From IMG/VR virus record IMGVR_UViG_3300036944_000561, positions 1-64,000 of that record: a stretch of DNA of 64,000 bases. One strand, written 5' to 3'. The position numbers and the translations under genes were made by a program. Source of the stretch: a virus. The notes beneath the pieces were generated by a model that was not told the origin of the DNA, did no database searches, and was given only the letters and a program-made list of their open reading frames with translations. Each line of letters starts with the position of its first letter. Within the stretch, counting starts at the first letter, position 1. This document shows, one piece after another, positions 47,019 to 57,145 of the stretch.

Positions 47019-48401
47019 TTAACCAAGTAAACTTTTGAACGCGATTTTTCGAAAGTACGAGTTACTGTTGGCAACGATACCGTCAGAGGTCACGGCGGTT
47101 TGTGGAGATTGGCCTACAGGGATCTGTACGAATGGGTTAGCCACAACACCATAACGAGTCTTGAACGCCATGCGGGGTTGGAATGAATCCTGACCTGTTG
47201 CACGGAACATTTCTAACGGCACGTATGGGCAATAGAAGTAACCAGCATCCAGTTGGTTCAGACCTTTGAACGCCACAGTAGCATAGTTGATTGAACCAGC
47301 ATATGGATCAATGAACACCTGCATACCGTTAGCCAGTACGCCAGCGAATGACTGGGCAGTTGGATCAACGGTCAGAGTGCGGTTCTGAGCCAGGGCAGGA
47401 GAATAGTCCAGCATACCAGCCATTACCAGGGCAGAAGCAACGTTCGGATGACACAGAACTTTGTTACCTTTACCACGACGAGTTTCAACGGCAATGCGGT
47501 TGGCTTCAACTTCCAGGATAAACATCAGATATTTCCAACGTTCCAGATCCCAACGACCACCAACATCATTCGCCATGTCGATCACACCAGTACCAGCACC
47601 GAACTGATCAGCCTTGACAGCGGAAACGTTCATATGGCGAATCATTTCACGGTTGATTTCAGCACCGATTTCGGTTACCATCACGTCAGCCAGGATGCTG
47701 TCAACGTCTTCACCATGAACAGCCATCATGTCCTGGCGTAATTCCTGTGAGTAGTCAGCATACAGACCACGGGACTTGGCAGAAACTTGGGCTTTCTGAA
47801 TGGTGATACCAACACGAGACCAGCTGCCAGTAGCACCCAGCAATTCAGCAGCGGCTGTTGACATACCTTTACCCGCTACAGTGGCAGTCGCATCACCAGT
47901 GCCGCCTTCAACTTCCAACACAGTGAAACCGGATGGATCACCAGCAGCGGCAGTAGTTGTGTCACCTGAGTAAGCTGAGTCAGCTTCGCTCATGAACAGT
48001 TCTGGTTTGGTTTCGTTATCTCCGGCACCAGCATCAGCACCCTTACGAGCACGCAATGCGAAGATCTGACCGTCTGGAGCTGGGAGAGGCTGAACACCGA
48101 AGAATTCGTTGGCGATGTTGATAGGAGCCAGACGTTTCGCCATTGCGATCAGTACAGGTGCCCAACGGCCAGCGGTAGAAGTGGCGTTGCCGATTGCGTT
48201 ATCAGCTTCGTTCAAAGTTGATTCGCTGATGCCATCATAGCCCAGGTTTTCACGGTTCCATGCGCTCTGGTTTTCCAACAGACGGATGGTGATGTCTTCT
48301 GGAGTCAGACCACGTGAAACACTGTCTTCACCTTCGATGACAGGGGTCCATTTCTTGCGCATTGATTCAGTCACAAGACCTTTGGTATTTGCTTTAGCCA
48401 T
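47019..48401 (-). CDS. 23: Major capsid protein gp23
   Basis: GVQPL..PDGQIFALR, AKSRGLYADYSQELRQD..AVHG.D, GYFYCPYVPL, FQPRMAFKTRYG. Confidence 0.97.
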   Translation of the reverse strand: MAKANTKGLVTESMRKKWTPVIEGEDSVSRGLTPEDITIRLLENQSAWNRENLGYDGISESTLNEADNAIGNATSTAGRWAPVLIAMAKRLAPINIANEFFGVQPLPAPDGQIFALRARKGADAGAGDNETKPELFMSEADSAYSGDTTTAAAGDPSGFTVLEVEGGTGDATATVAGKGMSTAAAELLGATGSWSRVGITIQKAQVSAKSRGLYADYSQELRQDMMAVHGEDVDSILADVMVTEIGAEINREMIRHMNVSAVKADQFGAGTGVIDMANDVGGRWDLERWKYLMFILEVEANRIAVETRRGKGNKVLCHPNVASALVMAGMLDYSPALAQNRTLTVDPTAQSFAGVLANGMQVFIDPYAGSINYATVAFKGLNQLDAGYFYCPYVPLEMFRATGQDSFQPRMAFKTRYGVVANPFVQIPVGQSPQTAVTSDGIVANSNSYFRKIAFKSLLG

Positions 48402-48439
48402 TTTCATTTTCTCCTGAAAATTTTATTTCGAGTCAAAAC

Positions 48440-48469: not shown

Positions 48470-49333
48470 TTATTTGATCAATCCCAAGCGACGGAGGTTG
48501 TTGACAGCTGACTCACCAATTTTCTTGGCTTCTTCAGATTCTTCGTCTTCTTCCTCTTCATCTTCGTCATCCATGTCGCCATTTTCTTTGATGTTCATGG
48601 GGTAATCTTTGTCGGTTCCGTCAACAAATTCTTCACCCATTGTGCCGTCAGGATTCTGCTTTGACTTTCTAGGTTTGCCGTCATCGAACAGATCGTCTTC
48701 TTCGACTTTCGATTTTTCAACGATTACACGATAACCTTCACAGAGTTCTTTGAAGGATGTTTCATCTTCAAAGGCGGCTTTCATACAACGTTCCATCAGT
48801 CTACCAGCAGACACGGCAGTCATTCCTTTAGAAACAGACTCCACGATGGCTTTCTTCTTCATCTTGGTCAGTTCTTCGGTGATAGACACACTATGGCTCA
48901 AAGCGTCATTCAGACGGCTGCGAGTGGTGGCCAATTGACTTTCGAGCAGATCCAATTTGCTTTCTTCACCTTCTGGGATAGTGACGTTGAATTTTTTAGC
49001 AGATTCAACGATGCTTGCCATGAAGACTTGAGACAACTGATTGATTGCTTCATTCTGAATACCAATAGAATTTTTGTTAGCCCAATCAATGACAGTCATG
49101 CTCAGGAACTGGTCAAATTTTTCAGCAATGACTTTGGCAGCAGCTTCTGAATTGTAAGCGGCGGCTTCGGCCAATTGTTCACGAAGATCACCAATTTCTT
49201 CGTTCAATCCAGAAGTGGCTTCGTCGATTCTGGATTGAACCTTTTCTTCAACGGCTGCTTCGAAAATCGGTTTCATTTTGGCGATCAGACTTTCATTCAA
49301 GCCGTCAACACCTTCAAAAATTTTCTCAAACAT
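48470..49333 (-). CDS. 22: Prohead core scaffold gp22
   Basis: IFEAAVEEKV..., coiled-coil, acidic tail; lies between genes 21 and 23. Confidence 0.85.
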   Translation of the reverse strand: MFEKIFEGVDGLNESLIAKMKPIFEAAVEEKVQSRIDEATSGLNEEIGDLREQLAEAAAYNSEAAAKVIAEKFDQFLSMTVIDWANKNSIGIQNEAINQLSQVFMASIVESAKKFNVTIPEGEESKLDLLESQLATTRSRLNDALSHSVSITEELTKMKKKAIVESVSKGMTAVSAGRLMERCMKAAFEDETSFKELCEGYRVIVEKSKVEEDDLFDDGKPRKSKQNPDGTMGEEFVDGTDKDYPMNIKENGDMDDEDEEEEDEESEEAKKIGESAVNNLRRLGLIK

Positions 49334-49378: not shown

Positions 49379-50020
49379 TTATAGTCTGTTCAACGCCATT
49401 TTAAACCGACGAATTAATTCTTCGTCATTGCTGTTTTCGCGGATAAATGTATCCGCTTTGCGCCCATCAACACTGACAGGACGCCATACACCATTTTCAC
49501 AAATCCATTCTACAGATTCATGAATAGCATTTACATAACAAGCCTGACCAGAAGGACGATCAACTGTATCAACAGCAGTGATCATATACCCTGGGCGGAC
49601 ATGGTCACCCCTGACTTCACCCAAACCACGAGTTGAAACCCCCAGGTTGTACCCGGCTTCAACCAATGATCTTAGAATCTGTCCTTTGGGATTGTTCAAC
49701 ACTTCAGCGCGACCGACCGCTAGACTTTTATCCCATGTCAACGGGGTATGGATCATGGTTGCGGCTTCACTAAGTTTTGGAAATGGATATTCTGGATGTT
49801 CAACTTCACCAATTGCACGGCGATCTTGGATATAATCCCGATTGTATGCCTCAACAGCAGGGATACCCACGGTGTCCATATCATAGATACGACCGTTACG
49901 GTTTTTGGAGTTACACATCACCATTGGACCTTCAAGATACAGTTTTCGTCCAGACTCAGTGTTCTCTGTCAAAACGTCCAACTGCAGGTCACCATGATAA
50001 TTGTCAGACAAAAACTTCAT
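49379..50020 (-). CDS. 21: Prohead protease gp21
   Basis: NRNGRIY, AIGEVEHP, LGVSTRGLG, VDTVDRPS. Confidence 0.95.
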   Translation of the reverse strand: MKFLSDNYHGDLQLDVLTENTESGRKLYLEGPMVMCNSKNRNGRIYDMDTVGIPAVEAYNRDYIQDRRAIGEVEHPEYPFPKLSEAATMIHTPLTWDKSLAVGRAEVLNNPKGQILRSLVEAGYNLGVSTRGLGEVRGDHVRPGYMITAVDTVDRPSGQACYVNAIHESVEWICENGVWRPVSVDGRKADTFIRENSNDEELIRRFKMALNRL

Positions 50021-50324: not shown

Positions 50325-50531
50325 TTACTCCTCCTCGTCCTCATCATCGAATGCTTCATCATCACATTCATGAGTTTGAGGAGCAACCATTGCAGAAAGA
50401 ATGTGAGATTTTACGTCATCGATCACACCGTCAGCCCGGTCATTCAATTCATTTTCAATCAGTTCTTGTGCTTGGCTCAGATCATTAGAACCCAGAGCAG
50501 CTACAATCTGATGTACACGTGCGTTTGCCAT
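50325..50531 (-). CDS. Prohead core protein gp67-like (acidic)
   Basis: Short helical protein with D/E-rich tail between portal and gp68. Confidence 0.7.
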   Translation of the reverse strand: MANARVHQIVAALGSNDLSQAQELIENELNDRADGVIDDVKSHILSAMVAPQTHECDDEAFDDEDEEE

Positions 50532-50563
50532 GTTGAGGCCTCCTAATAAAATTTCAAAAGTAT

Positions 50564-51028
50564 TTAGCCGATATCCAAATCTAGAAATTTCTTATGCTTT
50601 TTGAAATATTCGATATCACCAGAAGGAATCATATCTCCATCCATGACAAGAACGTTTCCATCTAATTGAAGATCGTATGAAGCAACACCATCAATATAAA
50701 TGGTAACAGTCTTATCCTTTCCAACCGCCTTGTATTTGCTCTTAGATGCATCAACGAATTTTGCGAATTTTGCAGCAGCTTTGAGAATATCTTCACCCGC
50801 CTTTACTGGATAGTACAGTCTATATCCATATCCAGATTTTGGTTCATATTTGATAACCCCGATGCTAGTGTTGACCGACGTCTGACCTTCGCAAATACTT
50901 TTCAAAATTGATTCGGTTATAGTCGCTTTGATGTTTTCGCTTCTTTTGTTGAGTTCTGCTTCTATAAGTTCCTGAGCACTTTCTAAATTATTTGTCATCA
51001 GTGCTTCAACAATTTGTTCAACTGACAT
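50564..51028 (-). CDS. gp67-like leader fused to an unknown Lys-rich domain
   Basis: Residues 3-29 are 18/27 identical to the adjacent gp67-like protein. Confidence 0.75.
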   Translation of the reverse strand: MSVEQIVEALMTNNLESAQELIEAELNKRSENIKATITESILKSICEGQTSVNTSIGVIKYEPKSGYGYRLYYPVKAGEDILKAAAKFAKFVDASKSKYKAVGKDKTVTIYIDGVASYDLQLDGNVLVMDGDMIPSGDIEYFKKHKKFLDLDIG

Positions 51029-51029
51029 T

Positions 51030-52739
51030 TCATTTCTCCTCAGGGATTTGGTCTGGTTCTTCAGCAGCGGGATAATTCAAACTACCCGGTTGAGGTTCTG
51101 GTTGTTCCGGGGGAGTTTCCGGTTCTTCAAAACCACCTTGTCCCGTTTCATCTTCCTTTTTCATTTGGAGTGGGGATTCTCCGATATCGTCGTAAAGACC
51201 AGCTTTCTTCTCTTCAGCAATTTGTTTTTCTTCTTGTTCGATTTCTTCATCAGACAACCGGAGGATGTTTTTCTTGATGGTTTGAATAGAGAAAATTTTG
51301 CCAACATACGGTTCGGCCTCACGCATTGCATTGATACGACCCATCATGAGTTCAGTTTCTTGTTGTTCAGCAACATAAGAATCCGCTGCATAGTCATATC
51401 CAATTTTGTCTTTGATTTCTTCCCATTCATCGGAATTAACAATCTTTTTCTGAATGAGTTCGACTTTCAATATTTGCTTAAGAATGGCATTAAAACGTTT
51501 CTTGACACGCCCGGTATGTCTGTTGAATTTCCATTCCTCACGAGTGATCTGCGCCAAATCGGATCCACCGATATTCACCATCGCATCTGGTGATTGGCGA
51601 GTGGTTGGAATTTTCAAAGAACGATACAATTTATCTCTGAAATATTGAATATGATTGACTTCACCAATGTTTCTTCCGGCTTCAAGATTTTGAATTTCTG
51701 TGGCTTGCTGACCATCACGCCGGGGCAACCAATAGTCTTCTACCATTGAGATGTTGGTCTTGTTTCGATCAATGTCCCCGGTTTCAGTGTTGTAGTTCAA
51801 TTTCGTTTTGAACTTTTCCATCATTTTGACGATGTATTCTTCTGCTGATTTCTTAGGTAGATCTCCAACGTCTAGAAGGAATGCTCTCTTGTCAATTGCG
51901 CGAGTGATGGAATATATCACATTACCATCTTCAACCGTTTTCAGGTTGTTTGCAGGCTTTACAGCTGGCTCTAGAAAGCCGACTGATGATCTACCATCCG
52001 AAGTGTACATCCCTGCATCTGAAAATGCGACGGATTCAAACGGAAGTTCTAGAATTTTGTTTTGATTGATGCTCATCACCCAGGTATTCACCCCGGATTG
52101 ACTGGTCGCAGTCGAATCATACAAATATGTTTTGCGTTCACTCTTGACAATTTCAATATTGTCTTTGTGTTCGGTTTCAACCAAAGTCACCGGGCGAATA
52201 GCAACCGGGTCAAGACAAACCAATTTCTTGATCCCTTTACCCTTTTCGTCCAAGATGATCTGATAACCACGACGACCATCAACATAGAATTGTCTGAAGA
52301 CTTCGTATGCATTATCTTCAAGATCCATCAATCGACTAATCTTATCATGAGCCTCACGGATCTTATCTTTAATGCTTTCAGAAAGTTCAAGACGATCTAA
52401 GTTTATAGCAATCGGGCTTTCATCACCTTCGTTTGTGATAATGTCATTAATCACATGATCAATGGCTTCGTCGACTTCAACATAGTATTGCATATTCCTA
52501 TATGTTAGAATACGAATCGACATTCGCTTGGCATTGGCTTCTGAATTCGGAATAACAGAAGTCAGAACACCTCCACCAATCACATAAGTTTCAGTTCCGT
52601 CTAAGGAAGTTGTGATCTGATTATTCTGAGAAAGATCTTCAACTGGGGTTTCCTGACCATCCCACGGAACTACAGACTTTCCGCCGAATATACCACCCAT
52701 GAAGCTCTCAAGAATAAACGATAATTTTTTATCTGCCAT
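51030..52739 (-). CDS. 20: Portal protein gp20
   Basis: FRQFYVDGR, YSITRAIDKRAFLLDVGDLP, EDYWLPRRDG, LKIPTTR. Confidence 0.96.
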   Translation of the reverse strand: MADKKLSFILESFMGGIFGGKSVVPWDGQETPVEDLSQNNQITTSLDGTETYVIGGGVLTSVIPNSEANAKRMSIRILTYRNMQYYVEVDEAIDHVINDIITNEGDESPIAINLDRLELSESIKDKIREAHDKISRLMDLEDNAYEVFRQFYVDGRRGYQIILDEKGKGIKKLVCLDPVAIRPVTLVETEHKDNIEIVKSERKTYLYDSTATSQSGVNTWVMSINQNKILELPFESVAFSDAGMYTSDGRSSVGFLEPAVKPANNLKTVEDGNVIYSITRAIDKRAFLLDVGDLPKKSAEEYIVKMMEKFKTKLNYNTETGDIDRNKTNISMVEDYWLPRRDGQQATEIQNLEAGRNIGEVNHIQYFRDKLYRSLKIPTTRQSPDAMVNIGGSDLAQITREEWKFNRHTGRVKKRFNAILKQILKVELIQKKIVNSDEWEEIKDKIGYDYAADSYVAEQQETELMMGRINAMREAEPYVGKIFSIQTIKKNILRLSDEEIEQEEKQIAEEKKAGLYDDIGESPLQMKKEDETGQGGFEEPETPPEQPEPQPGSLNYPAAEEPDQIPEEK

Positions 52740-52783: not shown

Positions 52784-52807
52784 AAAGGGGACATTTCAGT
52801 CCCCTTT
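52784..52807 (-). terminator. Terminator after gene 19
   Basis: AAAGGGGAC-ATTTCA-GTCCCCTTT; followed on the minus strand by CTTAAATA (52776-52769). Confidence 0.8.
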
Positions 52808-52824: not shown

Positions 52825-53358
52825 TTATCGAGCGGTTGCCCCCTGGCAGTTGAAATACCGCAGAGTCACCGTGAATTGGCTGTAACTGTCTTGAGCAGTT
52901 TGGTCAAGTGTCAATTCCCCTACTTCTTGAGGCCATGCATCTTGAAGTCTGTAGGTCTTGACTACTGCATCATTCTTGTCAAGCAATTCCAATTCGACAT
53001 CTTGGAACAAGTTCACAAATTCATCGGCTGCAGTGTTAGACTGTGATCCGTTGAATTGTTCCTGCCAAGCTTCGAATAAGCTATGATGGAAATCATCTTC
53101 AACACCCAGGAATGTAAGAGGGAACGGTTCCCATTTACGATCACCTGGTTCCGGAAATTCACGGCCACCCCAAGGCAACATCACTTCACCCAAAGTGAAC
53201 TTTGGGGTCTGAGTTGAAATTGCCAGAATGGAAGCATCCTGAGTTTGAGTTGAAGAAGTCACCGCAGCGGGGAACGCTAAATTCACCCGCCAGCGATATT
53301 GACGCCCCACGTTGCCATGGCGTTGTAAGGCACTTCTAAATCCTGCGATTGATGGCAT
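52825..53358 (-). CDS. 19: Tail tube protein gp19
   Basis: RQYRWRV, PWGGREFPEPGDRKW, DAWPQEVGELTLD. Confidence 0.93.
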   Translation of the reverse strand: MPSIAGFRSALQRHGNVGRQYRWRVNLAFPAAVTSSTQTQDASILAISTQTPKFTLGEVMLPWGGREFPEPGDRKWEPFPLTFLGVEDDFHHSLFEAWQEQFNGSQSNTAADEFVNLFQDVELELLDKNDAVVKTYRLQDAWPQEVGELTLDQTAQDSYSQFTVTLRYFNCQGATAR

Positions 53359-53374
53359 TTATCATTCCTCCAAA

Positions 53375-55366
53375 TTATGCGCTGTATGCGCCTTCAAGCT
53401 CAGAAAATTCCATATCTGGACGAAGCGCAACAAAATCAAGCAGAACCCAATCTATCACATACTGCGGCTTGATCCAAATACCTGCAACGAACTTGTTCTC
53501 CACGAGAACCTGAGCATCATTGTTGGTTTCATCACACTTCACCCGGTAATCAAGGATTTCTCCAGATTCTTTCTTCTTGCGGAGATACGGTTCTACAGAC
53601 AGTCTGAAAGACGCCTGAGTAAAGGTGTCATTGTTCTCACCCAACACATACTTGGCAGTGTCTGAAATGTTGACTTCGGCTTCGATGAAAACACCACGAG
53701 TTGGCAATCTAGAAAATGCTGATTTCTTGGAGAGACCAGTTTTCTCACCCATGAGGATGATGCCTTCTTTTTCGGTCACAATTGAGTTGATGCCCAGTTC
53801 GTTGTAAACTTCAGAACGTTCATCATCGTTTGCAGACCAAGCCATTTTCTTATAGCCGAGATATTTCCCACGGTTATAGAATGCAGGGGATTTGCCGATA
53901 CCAGCATTAGAAATGGATCGGAACCAGAGACCAGCGGTGCCACCACAACAAGGAATCCAACGATAGACATTGTTATAACTGTCGTAAACATAACCCCAGT
54001 TATCATCCATAAAGAAATATGAATTATCCCGGAGCAATTCGTTGTTTCTCCAATTACGAAGAACGCTCATTTTGGTCTTTCGACTTGCAGAACGGAACTC
54101 GGCAGGAGGGGAAACGAATGTTACTGAAGTGCGTTTTGAAACACTCAAGTCAATAGCAGCTTGAGTATATTCAAGCAGTTGACCTTGTCCGATCAATGCC
54201 AGGAACTGATTGGTCTTCACGTTCAGAATGTCATAACAGCTCTGGTAATCAGCATCACCAGCCCCGTCTGAACCGTTACGTAATTGGATGAACCCGGTAG
54301 GAACAGAAGTTCCAAACGCTGGACCACAACCAATCCATGAAGAATTCGGGTTCACATAGTCAACATAATACGCAGTTGAACCATCAAACTTCTTAGCACC
54401 TTCGATAATGCTCAGGTGTTCGAAGCTTTCCAAATATGAACCATAATCGGTGATAACAACCGGAGTAGCAGTTACAGCTGTGAATGCGGTGCCAGCTGAA
54501 GCATACCAAGTTGCTGTACCCATATCGGTGTAGAATTCAACTTCGATGTCAGCAGTTCCGGTCAAACGAATGGCACGGATATTGTTCAGACGTTTCTTGC
54601 TTGAAGAAATTTCTTCGTTGAATTGACGAACCAATTCAGTCACCAATTCAGTATCATCAGTCGGTGCCACTAGAGCATTAGGCCATTGAAGCAAAATACG
54701 TGATGTGCCTGTCTGATTACCCAGATAGATACCATCCTGAGCATCACCTGGCCAGGTGATAGACAATGTCACACGATCCGGGAAATCGGTCGGTGTAGTG
54801 CCGCTCAGAGCGCCTGTTTCATCAAAAACAAACAGGTGGTATGTCTCATCAGCAGTCAGATCACTCTTGTCATTCAACAAAGTGTAGAGATATGCAAGAC
54901 CAGACCGAAATCCATCAGCATAATCTTGTTTTGCGGTAGCCAGGTCAGTCGAATCCATTACATAGGTGTTCAGATTGTTTCCTAGCGCACCAGGATACCG
55001 AGCGAAAATTTCATTGTTTCCTGCGTAATCTTCAAGATCTTGAGCATTCTTAACAGTCATTGCATCACCAGTAGTTGGGATGGCGTTCAATGCTCCAGGT
55101 TTAAGAGCACGACAAACCATTGCTGATTTGCTATAACGGAAGAAGTCAGCCATCACCAAAAAGTCCAGATATTGAGTGGTGGTTGGCTTCCAGAAATTGG
55201 AAACAAGTCCGGTTTCCCCGCTTGAAATTCTGACAGGATTTTCTGCTTCACCCCACGCAAACTCACCGACAAGAGCAGCAAGCTGTGTGAGGCCAGAAGT
55301 AGTCGCCAATGTCAGATCGGTTTCAGTCCATTGAACCGATGGAGCGACAATAAATGAATCAGCCAT
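53375..55366 (-). CDS. 18: Tail sheath protein gp18
   Basis: PSVQWTETDLT, GEFAWG, SPAFYNRG, GEKT, FSRLPTR, GENNDTFT. Confidence 0.95.
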   Translation of the reverse strand: MADSFIVAPSVQWTETDLTLATTSGLTQLAALVGEFAWGEAENPVRISSGETGLVSNFWKPTTTQYLDFLVMADFFRYSKSAMVCRALKPGALNAIPTTGDAMTVKNAQDLEDYAGNNEIFARYPGALGNNLNTYVMDSTDLATAKQDYADGFRSGLAYLYTLLNDKSDLTADETYHLFVFDETGALSGTTPTDFPDRVTLSITWPGDAQDGIYLGNQTGTSRILLQWPNALVAPTDDTELVTELVRQFNEEISSSKKRLNNIRAIRLTGTADIEVEFYTDMGTATWYASAGTAFTAVTATPVVITDYGSYLESFEHLSIIEGAKKFDGSTAYYVDYVNPNSSWIGCGPAFGTSVPTGFIQLRNGSDGAGDADYQSCYDILNVKTNQFLALIGQGQLLEYTQAAIDLSVSKRTSVTFVSPPAEFRSASRKTKMSVLRNWRNNELLRDNSYFFMDDNWGYVYDSYNNVYRWIPCCGGTAGLWFRSISNAGIGKSPAFYNRGKYLGYKKMAWSANDDERSEVYNELGINSIVTEKEGIILMGEKTGLSKKSAFSRLPTRGVFIEAEVNISDTAKYVLGENNDTFTQASFRLSVEPYLRKKKESGEILDYRVKCDETNNDAQVLVENKFVAGIWIKPQYVIDWVLLDFVALRPDMEFSELEGAYSA

Positions 55367-55414: not shown

Positions 55415-57145
55415 TCAGTTGCGCATCCAATCTTCTATAGATTGACCGGATGTTTCTGGTGTTAAGACTGAAATACCTGATGTTGAAACTTCTGTTTCGA
55501 CTTCGTTGTTCGTACCCCCAACCAGAGGAAGTTTGAAAGAACCTTCATCAGTGGCTTTGTTGTACAATTCAGTTGAAACATTTCGTCCAAATTCGTCAAT
55601 GAACCATTGTTGCTTATACAACCAGGAAGCAATCACCAATGTCATCACAGTATCGTCGTGACAACCGTTGTCTGCTTGATATTTGTCGTCTTTGAGAATG
55701 AAGTTTCCCAACTCATAAATGGTTTCAAGATCTTTGACTTCCATCAATCCATTTTCGAGCATTGATTTCATGTTAGAACAGCCCACTGAGCGTGTTCGTT
55801 TGGTTGTTCTAATACCGGGCTTAGAACCCTTTCCGCCAATTTTCAATAATCCGGTCTTTTTGTCAAGTCCTGTTTTGAGAACATTTTCATATTCAAGATC
55901 ATAATAAAGAACAGTAATCGCCTGACCACCCATATCATTATTGATCTCTGGTATCACATAGCAACTACCATAAGCCTCACACATTGAAACAATGACATGC
56001 GGAAACAACAACGGAGAAATTTCATTGTTACGATATATTGCGGCAGTTGAATATGGATATGAAGATACATCCATAATACGACAAACAGAATAATCATCAC
56101 CTGTACCACCTCCAACATCAACGATGGCGATGTATTTCCGATTTTCTTCATATCTTCTGTAGATCTTGGTCCATTCATCGGGTTCTTCTAATGGACTTGT
56201 GGACACCATATTTTCAAGAGTTTTGGTATTGACCAGAGTTCCAACAGATCCAACGAAAGAACATTCAAATTCTTGTTTGAAACGGGCTTCCCCCAGTTTC
56301 TTGATTTGTTTGGCTTTCCAATCTGGATCTTTGCAATATGTAGGCACTTTATCCCATGTAACCTGAATTCTATGAAATCCGTTTGTATCCCCGTTCTCAT
56401 CTGGTTCAGCTTCCTTCCACAACTTATAAAACAACCCTCGTTGTCCTTTGGGGGTAGAGGTTATGATAACTTTGGAAGTTTCTGATTGTGATATAGCCGG
56501 GAAAGTAGATTCCCAAAACTCCATATCATTTTCAATGTGCGCTGCCTCATCCACATATAGGACTGCGCATGACCTACCCCTGATGGAGTCTGAAGATGTT
56601 GCATACGCTACGATTTTTGATCCATTATCAAATTCGACTTCAGTAGAACCATATTTTACGACACCAGGGGATAGGAAAAATGGCATATCCAATAATGCTT
56701 TCCTCACCCTAGCAAGAATCTCTATGGCTTGTTTTTCTTTATTCGCAAGAACAAAAATTTCTTTGTGTGGATGAAAAATTAGATACCATAACAAATAACA
56801 ACCAACTGTTGTAGACTTACCACTTTGACGTGATTGATTGTCAATTACAAAGCGATGTTCATTGAACGCATATAATAGCTCTTCCTGATATTCAAAAGGT
56901 TCAAAGAGAATGAAGCCCTTATCGATCGATGTGATTTTGTAGTAATTTTCAGCGAAATATACAGGATCTTCAGCACAACGCATGTACTCGATTTCTTGTT
57001 CCAGTGTCAACTCAATCTCTATTCCCTCGTTTTTCAACTTCTTCGAACGAGGAAATGTCTGATGAACATTGAGTTGCTGATCTGGTATCTTGAAACCAGT
57101 TTTCAGCGGAATTAGTTCAATCTTCCTGGGTTGTGGTGTCGCCAT
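55415..57145 (-). CDS. 17: Terminase large subunit gp17
   Basis: SRQSGKST, IRGRS, YVDEAAH, ITSTPKG, QEFEC, DVGGG, HDDTVM. Confidence 0.96.
   Translation of the reverse strand: MATPQPRKIELIPLKTGFKIPDQQLNVHQTFPRSKKLKNEGIEIELTLEQEIEYMRCAEDPVYFAENYYKITSIDKGFILFEPFEYQEELLYAFNEHRFVIDNQSRQSGKSTTVGCYLLWYLIFHPHKEIFVLANKEKQAIEILARVRKALLDMPFFLSPGVVKYGSTEVEFDNGSKIVAYATSSDSIRGRSCAVLYVDEAAHIENDMEFWESTFPAISQSETSKVIITSTPKGQRGLFYKLWKEAEPDENGDTNGFHRIQVTWDKVPTYCKDPDWKAKQIKKLGEARFKQEFECSFVGSVGTLVNTKTLENMVSTSPLEEPDEWTKIYRRYEENRKYIAIVDVGGGTGDDYSVCRIMDVSSYPYSTAAIYRNNEISPLLFPHVIVSMCEAYGSCYVIPEINNDMGGQAITVLYYDLEYENVLKTGLDKKTGLLKIGGKGSKPGIRTTKRTRSVGCSNMKSMLENGLMEVKDLETIYELGNFILKDDKYQADNGCHDDTVMTLVIASWLYKQQWFIDEFGRNVSTELYNKATDEGSFKLPLVGGTNNEVETEVSTSGISVLTPETSGQSIEDWMRN

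Follow-up and report, generated by a model that had tools for sequence, protein, structure and literature searches.

A probable long gp67-type prohead core protein with a predicted cleavage site and a folded C-terminal domain in Tedavirus-like phages

Background

The window analysed here comprises positions 1 to 64,000 (64,000 nucleotides) of the IMG/VR virus record IMGVR_UViG_3300036944_000561, a 128.5-kb virus contig that was rated 85% complete. Two small open reading frames (ORFs) are located between its T4-type portal gene and the gene for a gp68-like core protein: ORF154 (P0001; hereafter gp67L), encoding 154 amino acids (aa), followed by a 68-aa ORF (P0002; hereafter gp67S). Both products start with a similar helix, which in gp67L leads into a folded domain and in gp67S into an acidic tail. 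We report that ORF154, judged by homology and gene order, is the long gp67 form typical of the Tedavirus-like branch of Ackermannviridae-type phages. It belongs to a conserved family and is not a one-off, and it is best described as a conserved head-core variant rather than as a newly captured effector.

To our knowledge, gp67 is among the least understood parts of T4-type heads; all that is known of it is that it is a small helical core protein with an acidic tail and is cut up at maturation. In phage T4 it is a core protein of about 340 copies that is cut into fragments by the protease gp21; gp21 cleaves after (L/I)-x-E, and the peptides so formed are believed to escape from the head (PMC9958956, PMC9026906). 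The same protease serves the capsid-targeting sequence (CTS) system of T4, in which an N-terminal segment takes a passenger into the core and cleavage after (L/I)xE releases this passenger in the head (PMC9958956).

A preliminary description of the locus, made from the DNA sequence alone, had read ORF154 as a duplicated gp67-like leader fused to a basic cargo, that is, as a candidate capsid-loading tag reused for a novel effector. Here we re-examined this proposal using homology searches, gene order in related phages and structure prediction.

Results and discussion

Two copies of a gp67-type helix behind the portal gene

The ATG of ORF154 lies one base past the stop codon of the portal gene and is preceded by GAGGAG, while TAGGAGG is found upstream of the gp67S gene. 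The order portal, ORF154, 68-aa ORF, gp68-like gene and Peptidase_S77 gene in the window corresponds to 20, 67, 68 and 21 in T4. As the preliminary description had stated, ORF154 is located between the portal gene and a gp67-like gene, the two 27-residue stretches are identical at 18 positions (recounted), and the neighbour has an acidic tail where ORF154 has its C-terminal domain. In a single BLASTP comparison, residues 3-50 of ORF154 were aligned to residues 6-53 of the neighbour with 22 of 48 identical residues and an E-value of 2e-11. The DNA sequences of the two copies are well diverged and differ at most silent positions, which suggests that the duplication is old and that the likeness was kept at the protein level. 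A six-frame search of the 128.5-kb record, with its estimated completeness of 85%, returned these two copies of the leader; neither a third copy nor the leader on another protein was found in it.

The acidic tail ECDDEAFDDEDEEE forms the C-terminus of gp67S. This protein contains the (I/L)xE motif LIE26 and lacks a Glu at the position that corresponds to the junction of gp67L. No close homologue of gp67S was found elsewhere, except on a fragment of essentially the same phage. A complex prediction for the leader (residues 1-50) and gp67S (residues 1-55) gave a score of 0.05, which permits no verdict and was not used as evidence either way.

Taken together, sequence comparison and gene order make both ORF154 and gp67S probable gp67 homologues. 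The gp67S protein matches phrog_1064 (Table 1), the family that is matched by T4 gp67 at 1.7e-30. The leader of gp67L matches phrog_4097 alone, at 2.7e-4. This family is centred on 48-58-aa proteins that are encoded after the portal gene in other Ackermannviridae and are annotated as hypothetical. The short protein of phiMAM1 matches phrog_4097 at 1.5e-25, and those of phiMAM1 and VAP7 match phrog_1064 as well. When the profile of the long family was compared by hhalign with a profile of eight short Ackermannviridae proteins, a probability of 95.9% and an E-value of 5e-9 over 54 columns were obtained. The membership of gp67L in the gp67 family is therefore based on these intermediates and on synteny, as its direct link to T4 is weak. 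The earlier assignment of the ORF154 N-terminus to a gp67-type core helix is supported in this way for the N-terminal 47 residues.

One might argue instead that ORF154 encodes no head protein, that the helix likeness is due to chance or composition, and that an unrelated gene was inserted behind the portal gene; indeed, no library annotates the family and there is no direct match to Pfam GP67. Such an origin is very hard to reconcile with the BLASTP match to the neighbour and the hhalign match to the short forms, with the identical position in relatives, where the gene stands in place of the short form, and with a start codon one base after the portal stop behind GAGGAG. We regard it as highly improbable.

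Compared with T4 gp67 (PIP; PF17634 GP67, phrog_1064), the slot between the portal gene (gene 20) and gene 68 is common to both phages. Also shared are an N-terminal helix, about 45 residues long, that follows the pattern (I/V)-(V/I)-E-A-(L/I)-x-x-N-(D/N)-L-x-x-A and an (I/L)xE|G motif at residues 46-47 right behind this helix, which in T4 reads L-I-E|G and precedes the acidic tail. This tail comprises 34 residues in T4, whereas in gp67L a folded 107-aa domain with an isoelectric point (pI) of 8.7 occupies its place. The acidic tail after the helix is present in gp67S, which resembles T4 gp67 in this trait and in its phrog_1064 match but is devoid of the junction Glu. In addition, T4 has one gene where the window phage has two paralogues. 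The short Ackermannviridae proteins (phrog_4097; e.g. phiMAM1 YP_007349036 and VAP7 YP_009845809) have the slot and the helix in common with gp67L, but they end a few residues past the helix and have no C-terminal domain. They are annotated in the records as hypothetical proteins and not as gp67 homologues. We found no annotation of this mini-gene as gp67; a proteomics paper on Vi01-like phages names only a 'prohead core protein' and does not list the mini-gene. Nor did we find a description of a gp67 homologue with a folded passenger domain.

Table 1 Features of the head module and its surroundings in the window
Feature	Position	Strand	Basis of assignment
Terminase large subunit	55415-57145	-	Position and product length; phiA8-29 gene in the same position annotated as terminase large subunit
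Tail sheath	53375-55366	-	Position; 65% identity to phiA8-29 tail sheath
Tail tube	52825-53358	-	Position; 66% identity to phiA8-29 tail tube
Hairpin with T-run, possible transcript boundary	52784-52807	-	G+C-rich 9-bp hairpin, then T-run
Portal (gp20)	51030-52739	-	Pfam Portal_T4, 4.6e-143
ORF154 (P0001, gp67L), 154 aa, long-form gp67-family prohead core protein	50564-51028	-	Full-length relatives at 27-42% identity
Leader of gp67L, residues 1-47; two helices (3-11, 15-46); IVE8, LIE23, ITE39, ICE47	50888-51028	-	gp67-helix homology and AlphaFold2 model
Junction I-C-E47|G48, predicted gp21-type cleavage site	50885-50896	-	Motif conservation and low model confidence
C-terminal alpha/beta domain of gp67L, residues 48-154 (107 aa)	50567-50887	-	AlphaFold2 model; no match to known fold
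68-aa ORF (P0002, gp67S), helix and acidic tail	50325-50531	-	phrog_1064 match, 1.9e-5
gp68-like small prohead core protein, 96 aa	50032-50322	-	phrog_3503 'head scaffolding protein', 8e-26; 73% identity to phiA8-29 protein
gp21-type prohead protease	49379-50020	-	Pfam Peptidase_S77, 7.6e-20; 65% identity to phiA8-29 protease
gp22-type scaffold, 18 (I/L)xE motifs	48470-49333	-	Pfam T4_CASP, 3.7e-27
gp23 major capsid protein	47019-48407	-	Pfam Gp23, 8e-123, match from residue 81
Putative homing endonuclease, 254 aa	46209-46973	+	Sequence motif (see text)
Putative homing endonuclease, 559 aa	44499-46178	+	Sequence motifs (see text)

The long form is a conserved family

Beyond the window, 15 full-length relatives of gp67L were identified: the proteins of the Aeromonas phages phiA8-29 and TSW001, one from an IMG/VR contig and 12 metagenomic cluster representatives. 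The phiA8-29 (YP_009833140) and TSW001 (XYO05855) proteins comprise 154 aa each, are annotated as 'hypothetical protein' and are encoded immediately after the portal gene; their full-length identity to ORF154 is 30% (E-value 6e-14) and 27%, respectively. They agree with gp67L in length, architecture and locus and differ from it in that a short acid-tailed copy is missing, the C-domain is acidic (pI 4.6) and the junction reads V-L-E|S. The IMG/VR contig (L005/L008) encodes a long form of 165 aa. The remaining 12 relatives, of 149-275 aa and 27-42% identity, were recovered by a phmmer search of 1.84 billion cluster representatives; several are located on contigs of 142-149 kb, one of them labelled as an Aeromonas popoffii metagenome-assembled genome (MAG). 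Residues A18, L26, G57, Y99 and F142 are invariant and a C-terminal F-K-K-x-G-like motif recurs in the 13-sequence family alignment as well as in the phiA8-29 and TSW001 proteins.

In phiA8-29, TSW001 and the IMG/VR contig, no gene but that of the long form lies between portal and gp68, and a separate short copy is absent. A single short form of 48-58 aa is found instead at about 30 further loci of the Ackermannviridae type: L010-L033 from viral contigs, one contig from a metagenome and one from a Glaciecola MAG. Among the loci read, the window is the only one with both forms together. The loci were collected through a protease alignment (38 viral, four metagenome and one genome locus), and the slot was read in 27 viral loci (L008-L034) and in L047 and L051; no long form other than those of the known relatives was found in these slots.

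Other searches added no members. A tblastn search of P0001 against 50,697 phage records gave no match at an E-value of 1e-3; the phiA8-29 and TSW001 orthologs fall below this threshold and were recovered through synteny only. Megablast of the region yielded no match, a word-index protein search returned the query alone, and locus searches in viral contigs and genome contigs detected neither the fusion protein nor its relatives. Giant proteins with Big_9/cadherin repeats (1,200-4,300 aa; P0010, P0016, P0018 and others) were matched by phmmer at up to 2.7e-17, in 4-16 weak stretches each, and were rejected as homologues. These matches to ORF154 probably reflect beta-strand composition, while a remote link between the gp67L C-domain and the Ig-like (immunoglobulin-like) repeats of these proteins may exist.

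This distribution changes the picture drawn in the preliminary description. A duplicated tag that captured a novel effector in this phage does not agree with a helix and domain that are conserved together as a family and represent the only gp67-like gene in three relatives. The outcome that this description had itself named as counting against it, a fusion that is invariant in the clade as an ordinary structural subunit, is closely approached, as the fusion is a conserved family and the sole gp67-like gene there. The notion of a portable tag finds no support either: the leader occurs on no other protein of the record, and no different cargo was detected after it, save for the C-terminal extensions of two members.

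These two are the metagenomic proteins P0014 (224 aa) and P0025 (275 aa), in which a further, mutually divergent extension follows behind the shared domain. Paired motifs stand at the start of the extensions, LDE152/IDE157 in P0014 and LDE151/ITE158 in P0025, an arrangement that suggests modules strung together with putative protease sites between them. No Pfam family was assigned to the extensions.

The predicted junction and the C-terminal domain

The motifs I-T-E39 and I-C-E47 noted earlier in ORF154 are present, and the second of them appears to mark a junction. In the 13-sequence family alignment, E47 is nearly invariant, the P3 position is occupied by I, L, V, M or F, and the next residue is S, A or G. 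In the AlphaFold2 model of gp67L, built from this alignment with an overall predicted local distance difference test (pLDDT) value of 85.7, residues 41-50 form the only low-confidence stretch between helix and domain, with a mean pLDDT of 63. A conserved Glu within an otherwise variable and flexible linker looks like a protease site, and the junction fits a predicted gp21-type cleavage that would free the domain. In line with such a cut, T4 gp67 has L-I-E|G at the aligned place, the two longer family members have paired motifs where their extensions begin, and the window phage encodes a Peptidase_S77 protease as well as a capsid protein with L-N-E|A at its propeptide boundary. A second site, aligned with ITE39, is less conserved in the family. 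The leaders of the family contain 46 (I/L)xE motifs versus 21.4 expected from shuffled sequences, a descriptive value only since the sequences are related.

The globular domain postulated after the junction is borne out by the model, in which 107 aa fold into a compact alpha/beta arrangement of seven strands and two helices with pLDDT above 90 over most of its length. Foldseek against the PDB returned nothing below an E-value of 0.1 (best 0.13), a PDB sequence profile search with the domain returned nothing, and no Pfam, NCBIfam or PHROGs family was assigned to it, with only sub-threshold noise in Pfam and NCBIfam. In BFVD the model matched only the phiA8-29 ortholog (Foldseek E-value 7e-8) and A0A7R8RBA5, a viral protein of 151 aa (template modelling (TM) score 0.57, root-mean-square deviation 2.4, 116 columns, 14% identity); the latter may be a more distant member of the gp67L family in another phage group. 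The ESM Atlas yielded only assorted domains of unknown function at TM scores of 0.43-0.57, and VIA-align matches of the gp67L model were dominated by the helix. As modelled, the domain belongs to no detectable known fold or family, and we do not claim a new fold.

Positions G57, A85, F88, A89, D93, Y99 and F142 of the domain are conserved and look structural rather than catalytic. The description of the domain as a basic cargo has to be revised. Residues 48-154 of the window protein contain 15 Lys and one Arg versus 14 Asp/Glu (pI 8.7) and are only mildly basic. With domain pI values of 4.1-8.7 across the family, of which that of the window is the most basic, basicity was not accepted as a conserved trait.

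Origin of the short copy

The helix of gp67S is 42% identical to that of ORF154 and 36% to that of P0020, both of them long-form leaders, versus 12-29% to the short forms of Ackermannviridae and 22% to T4 gp67. Like the long family, it begins with M-x-N-x-R. Maximum-likelihood analysis of 24 leaders placed gp67S inside the long-form clade with a support of 94/90. Since its helix nests among the long-form leaders, the acid-tailed copy is more likely the derived one, which reverses the direction of duplication assumed in the preliminary description. Sequence comparison suggests the 5′ part of a long-form gene as the probable source of gp67S.

In the likeliest history, a short gp67 would have gained the C-domain at the base of the Tedavirus-like clade; in the lineage of the window phage, the 5′ part of the long form would then have been duplicated and have acquired an acidic tail. 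Alternatively, an ancestor may have possessed both copies, the short one being lost in the relatives.

Proposed role of gp67L

We consider it probable that gp67L acts as the gp67 of its clade, with a helix that enters the core, protease cuts at E47 and within the helix, and a freed 12-kDa domain that probably stays in the shell. By analogy to T4 gp67, the helix, i.e. the first 47 residues, would make gp67L part of the scaffolding core, which assembles on the portal. The activated gp21-type protease would then cut the helix at several (I/L)xE sites as well as at I-C-E47|G48, and the cut at the junction would free the folded 107-residue alpha/beta domain inside the capsid. Most likely the domain would remain in the head as an internal protein, because a folded domain of about 12 kDa is probably too large to exit like the T4 peptides. 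There it may serve as a DNA-associated filler, an ejected protein or an assembly helper. The function of the acidic tail of T4 gp67 may have been taken over by gp67S.

Several points weigh against this reading. The placement of gp67L and gp67S in proheads or virions is deduced from sequence, synteny and the T4 analogy; no virion proteome for this clade was found in the literature, and the TSW001 paper does not contain one. Direct comparison of gp67L with T4 gp67 by hhalign is weak (E-value 0.022), and Pfam GP67 is matched by neither gp67L nor gp67S. Genomic context was read for three of the 15 relatives. The leader tree is based on 58 columns, its deciding branch lies below the star threshold of the tool, resolution within the long-form clade is poor, and the tree leaves a sister relation of the two window copies unsettled. 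Finally, the C-domain shows no family-wide shortage of (I/L)xE motifs, with 17 observed and 12.3 expected, and depletion as a sign of protease resistance was therefore rejected. Residues 48-154 of the window protein contain none, but as many as three are found in orthologs, and degradation of the domain is therefore also conceivable.

The latter possibility leads to a purely morphogenetic C-domain, which would act as a spacer or by contacting portal, shell or gp68 and be degraded or expelled at maturation. A conserved position, the sole copy in the relatives, the one to three internal (I/L)xE motifs in the domain of orthologs and the lack of conserved polar residues of catalytic look would all be in line with it, and gp22, gp67 and gp68 of the T4 core end up as peptides after digestion (PMC9958956). 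Yet most Ackermannviridae build similar heads with the 48-58-aa form, so that the basic architecture does not depend on the domain, and the conservation of the domain is very low for a part that has to fit conserved partners. The domain of the window protein offers no (I/L)xE motif to the protease, and the internal motifs of the orthologs would lie in parts of a confidently folded domain that are predicted to be helix or strand. On balance, we judge a purely morphogenetic domain to be unlikely.

The divergence of gp67L bears on a further alternative. Among the head-module proteins, gp67L evolves fastest (Table 2), and its leader and domain diverge about equally.

Table 2 Amino acid identity of head-module proteins between the window phage, phiA8-29 and TSW001
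Protein	Window vs phiA8-29	phiA8-29 vs TSW001
Capsid (gp23)	81%	96%
gp68	73%	97%
Tail tube	66%	92%
Protease	65%	92%
Tail sheath	65%	87%
Portal	62%	88%
Scaffold (gp22)	48%	90%
gp67L	30%	75%

Such divergence fits weak constraint on a scaffold-like protein as well as diversifying pressure on a host-facing one, and it does not decide between them. In the host-facing case, which is the reading of the preliminary description, the helix would be an address tag only, and the freed C-domain would be ejected with the DNA and block a host defence, e.g. a restriction enzyme. A precedent is T4 IPI, which is injected and inhibits GmrSD (PMC9958956). A conserved cleavage-type junction in front of a folded passenger domain would agree with such an effector, and gp67L changes far faster than every neighbour (30% versus 48-81%, and 75% versus 87-97% between phiA8-29 and TSW001). 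A pI that varies from 4.1 to 8.7 while the conserved residues are mostly of the core type (G57, Y99, F142, A85, F88, A89) fits a binding protein under diversifying pressure. An acid-tailed core copy next to a separate cargo copy in the window phage would fit specialisation. However, the same domain is found family-wide, and the leader was met on no unrelated cargo and on no other protein of the record. Moreover, the long form is the sole gp67 homologue in the relatives and presumably does the core job itself, there is no similarity to a known anti-defence protein or fold, and fast change is also typical of scaffold-type proteins, gp22 being the second fastest in the module. An effector carried by a mere address tag is, in our estimate, improbable, and gp67L as the core protein of its clade is preferred.

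A comparison with the T4 internal proteins IPI, IPII, IPIII and Alt is nevertheless instructive, as these follow the same tag-then-cut logic, with (L/I)xE directly between the targeting segment and the rest; gp67L has a corresponding predicted site at its junction. The CTS of T4, about ten residues long, is reported to be conserved between IPII and IPIII (PMC9958956), whereas the 'tag' of gp67L would be the whole 47-residue core helix. The CTS is found on several unrelated cargos, but the gp67L leader is followed by the same domain in all 16 family members, and the T4 internal proteins have no sequence similarity to gp67L. It is a speculative and rather improbable extension that the long forms are the clade's counterpart of the T4 internal proteins, with hundreds of 12-kDa domains loaded, freed and ejected against host defence, and that an ancestral double-duty gene was split in the window phage into an acid-tailed core copy and a cargo copy. 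If this were true, the gp67 helix would join the 10-residue CTS of T4 as a second, separate capsid-delivery module found in nature.

The surrounding head module

The head-module genes of the window are of the T4 type, are all encoded on the minus strand and are tightly packed. By portal similarity, the nearest named relatives are the Aeromonas phages phiA8-29 (Ackermannviridae, Tedavirus) with 65% and TSW001 with 62%; similarity to Vibrio, Serratia and Erwinia Ackermannviridae is about 40-42%. The block from portal to capsid contains no TATAAATA, and no convincing promoter, late-promoter-like or terminator site was found between its genes. Between the genes for tail tube and portal lies a G+C-rich hairpin followed by a T-run, a possible transcript boundary ahead of the head-assembly block.

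In the capsid protein, residues 65-68 read L-N-E67|A and precede the Pfam Gp23 region, and the aligned position of phiA8-29 is L-T-E|A. This is likely the propeptide cleavage site, as predicted from the sequence; the capsid propeptide of T4 has 65 residues, which is close to the site in the window.

Two genes on the plus strand are oriented towards the end of the capsid gene. The 559-aa product contains four H-G-x-K-Y-D-Y-S-K-V ... C-P-x-H-G ... C-x-x-C repeats followed by a GIY-YIG-like region, and the 254-aa product an HNH-like H-H-I-L-P-R motif; by these motifs both look like homing endonucleases. A homing endonuclease gene is likewise found directly after the capsid gene of phiA8-29. In relatives, such genes occur at varying spots near the tail tube and portal genes (L001, 4667-5371; L003, 4468-5922; L004, 4143-5292), while the window has none around these two genes. 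For homing endonuclease insertion, the head module seems to be a hotspot.

Conclusions

The Ackermannviridae-type mini-gene after the portal gene, so far unannotated, is by these comparisons a gp67 homologue. In one branch it has been extended by a folded domain behind a conserved protease-type site, and as a consequence a core subunit would double as a carrier. With both forms side by side, the window phage provides a natural experiment in which core and passenger functions are separated. If the domain were only a scaffold accessory, the finding would amount to an annotation improvement for a small phage clade. If it were retained and ejected, gp67L would represent a new class of internal head protein and its leader a ready-made, longer capsid-loading tag for engineering.

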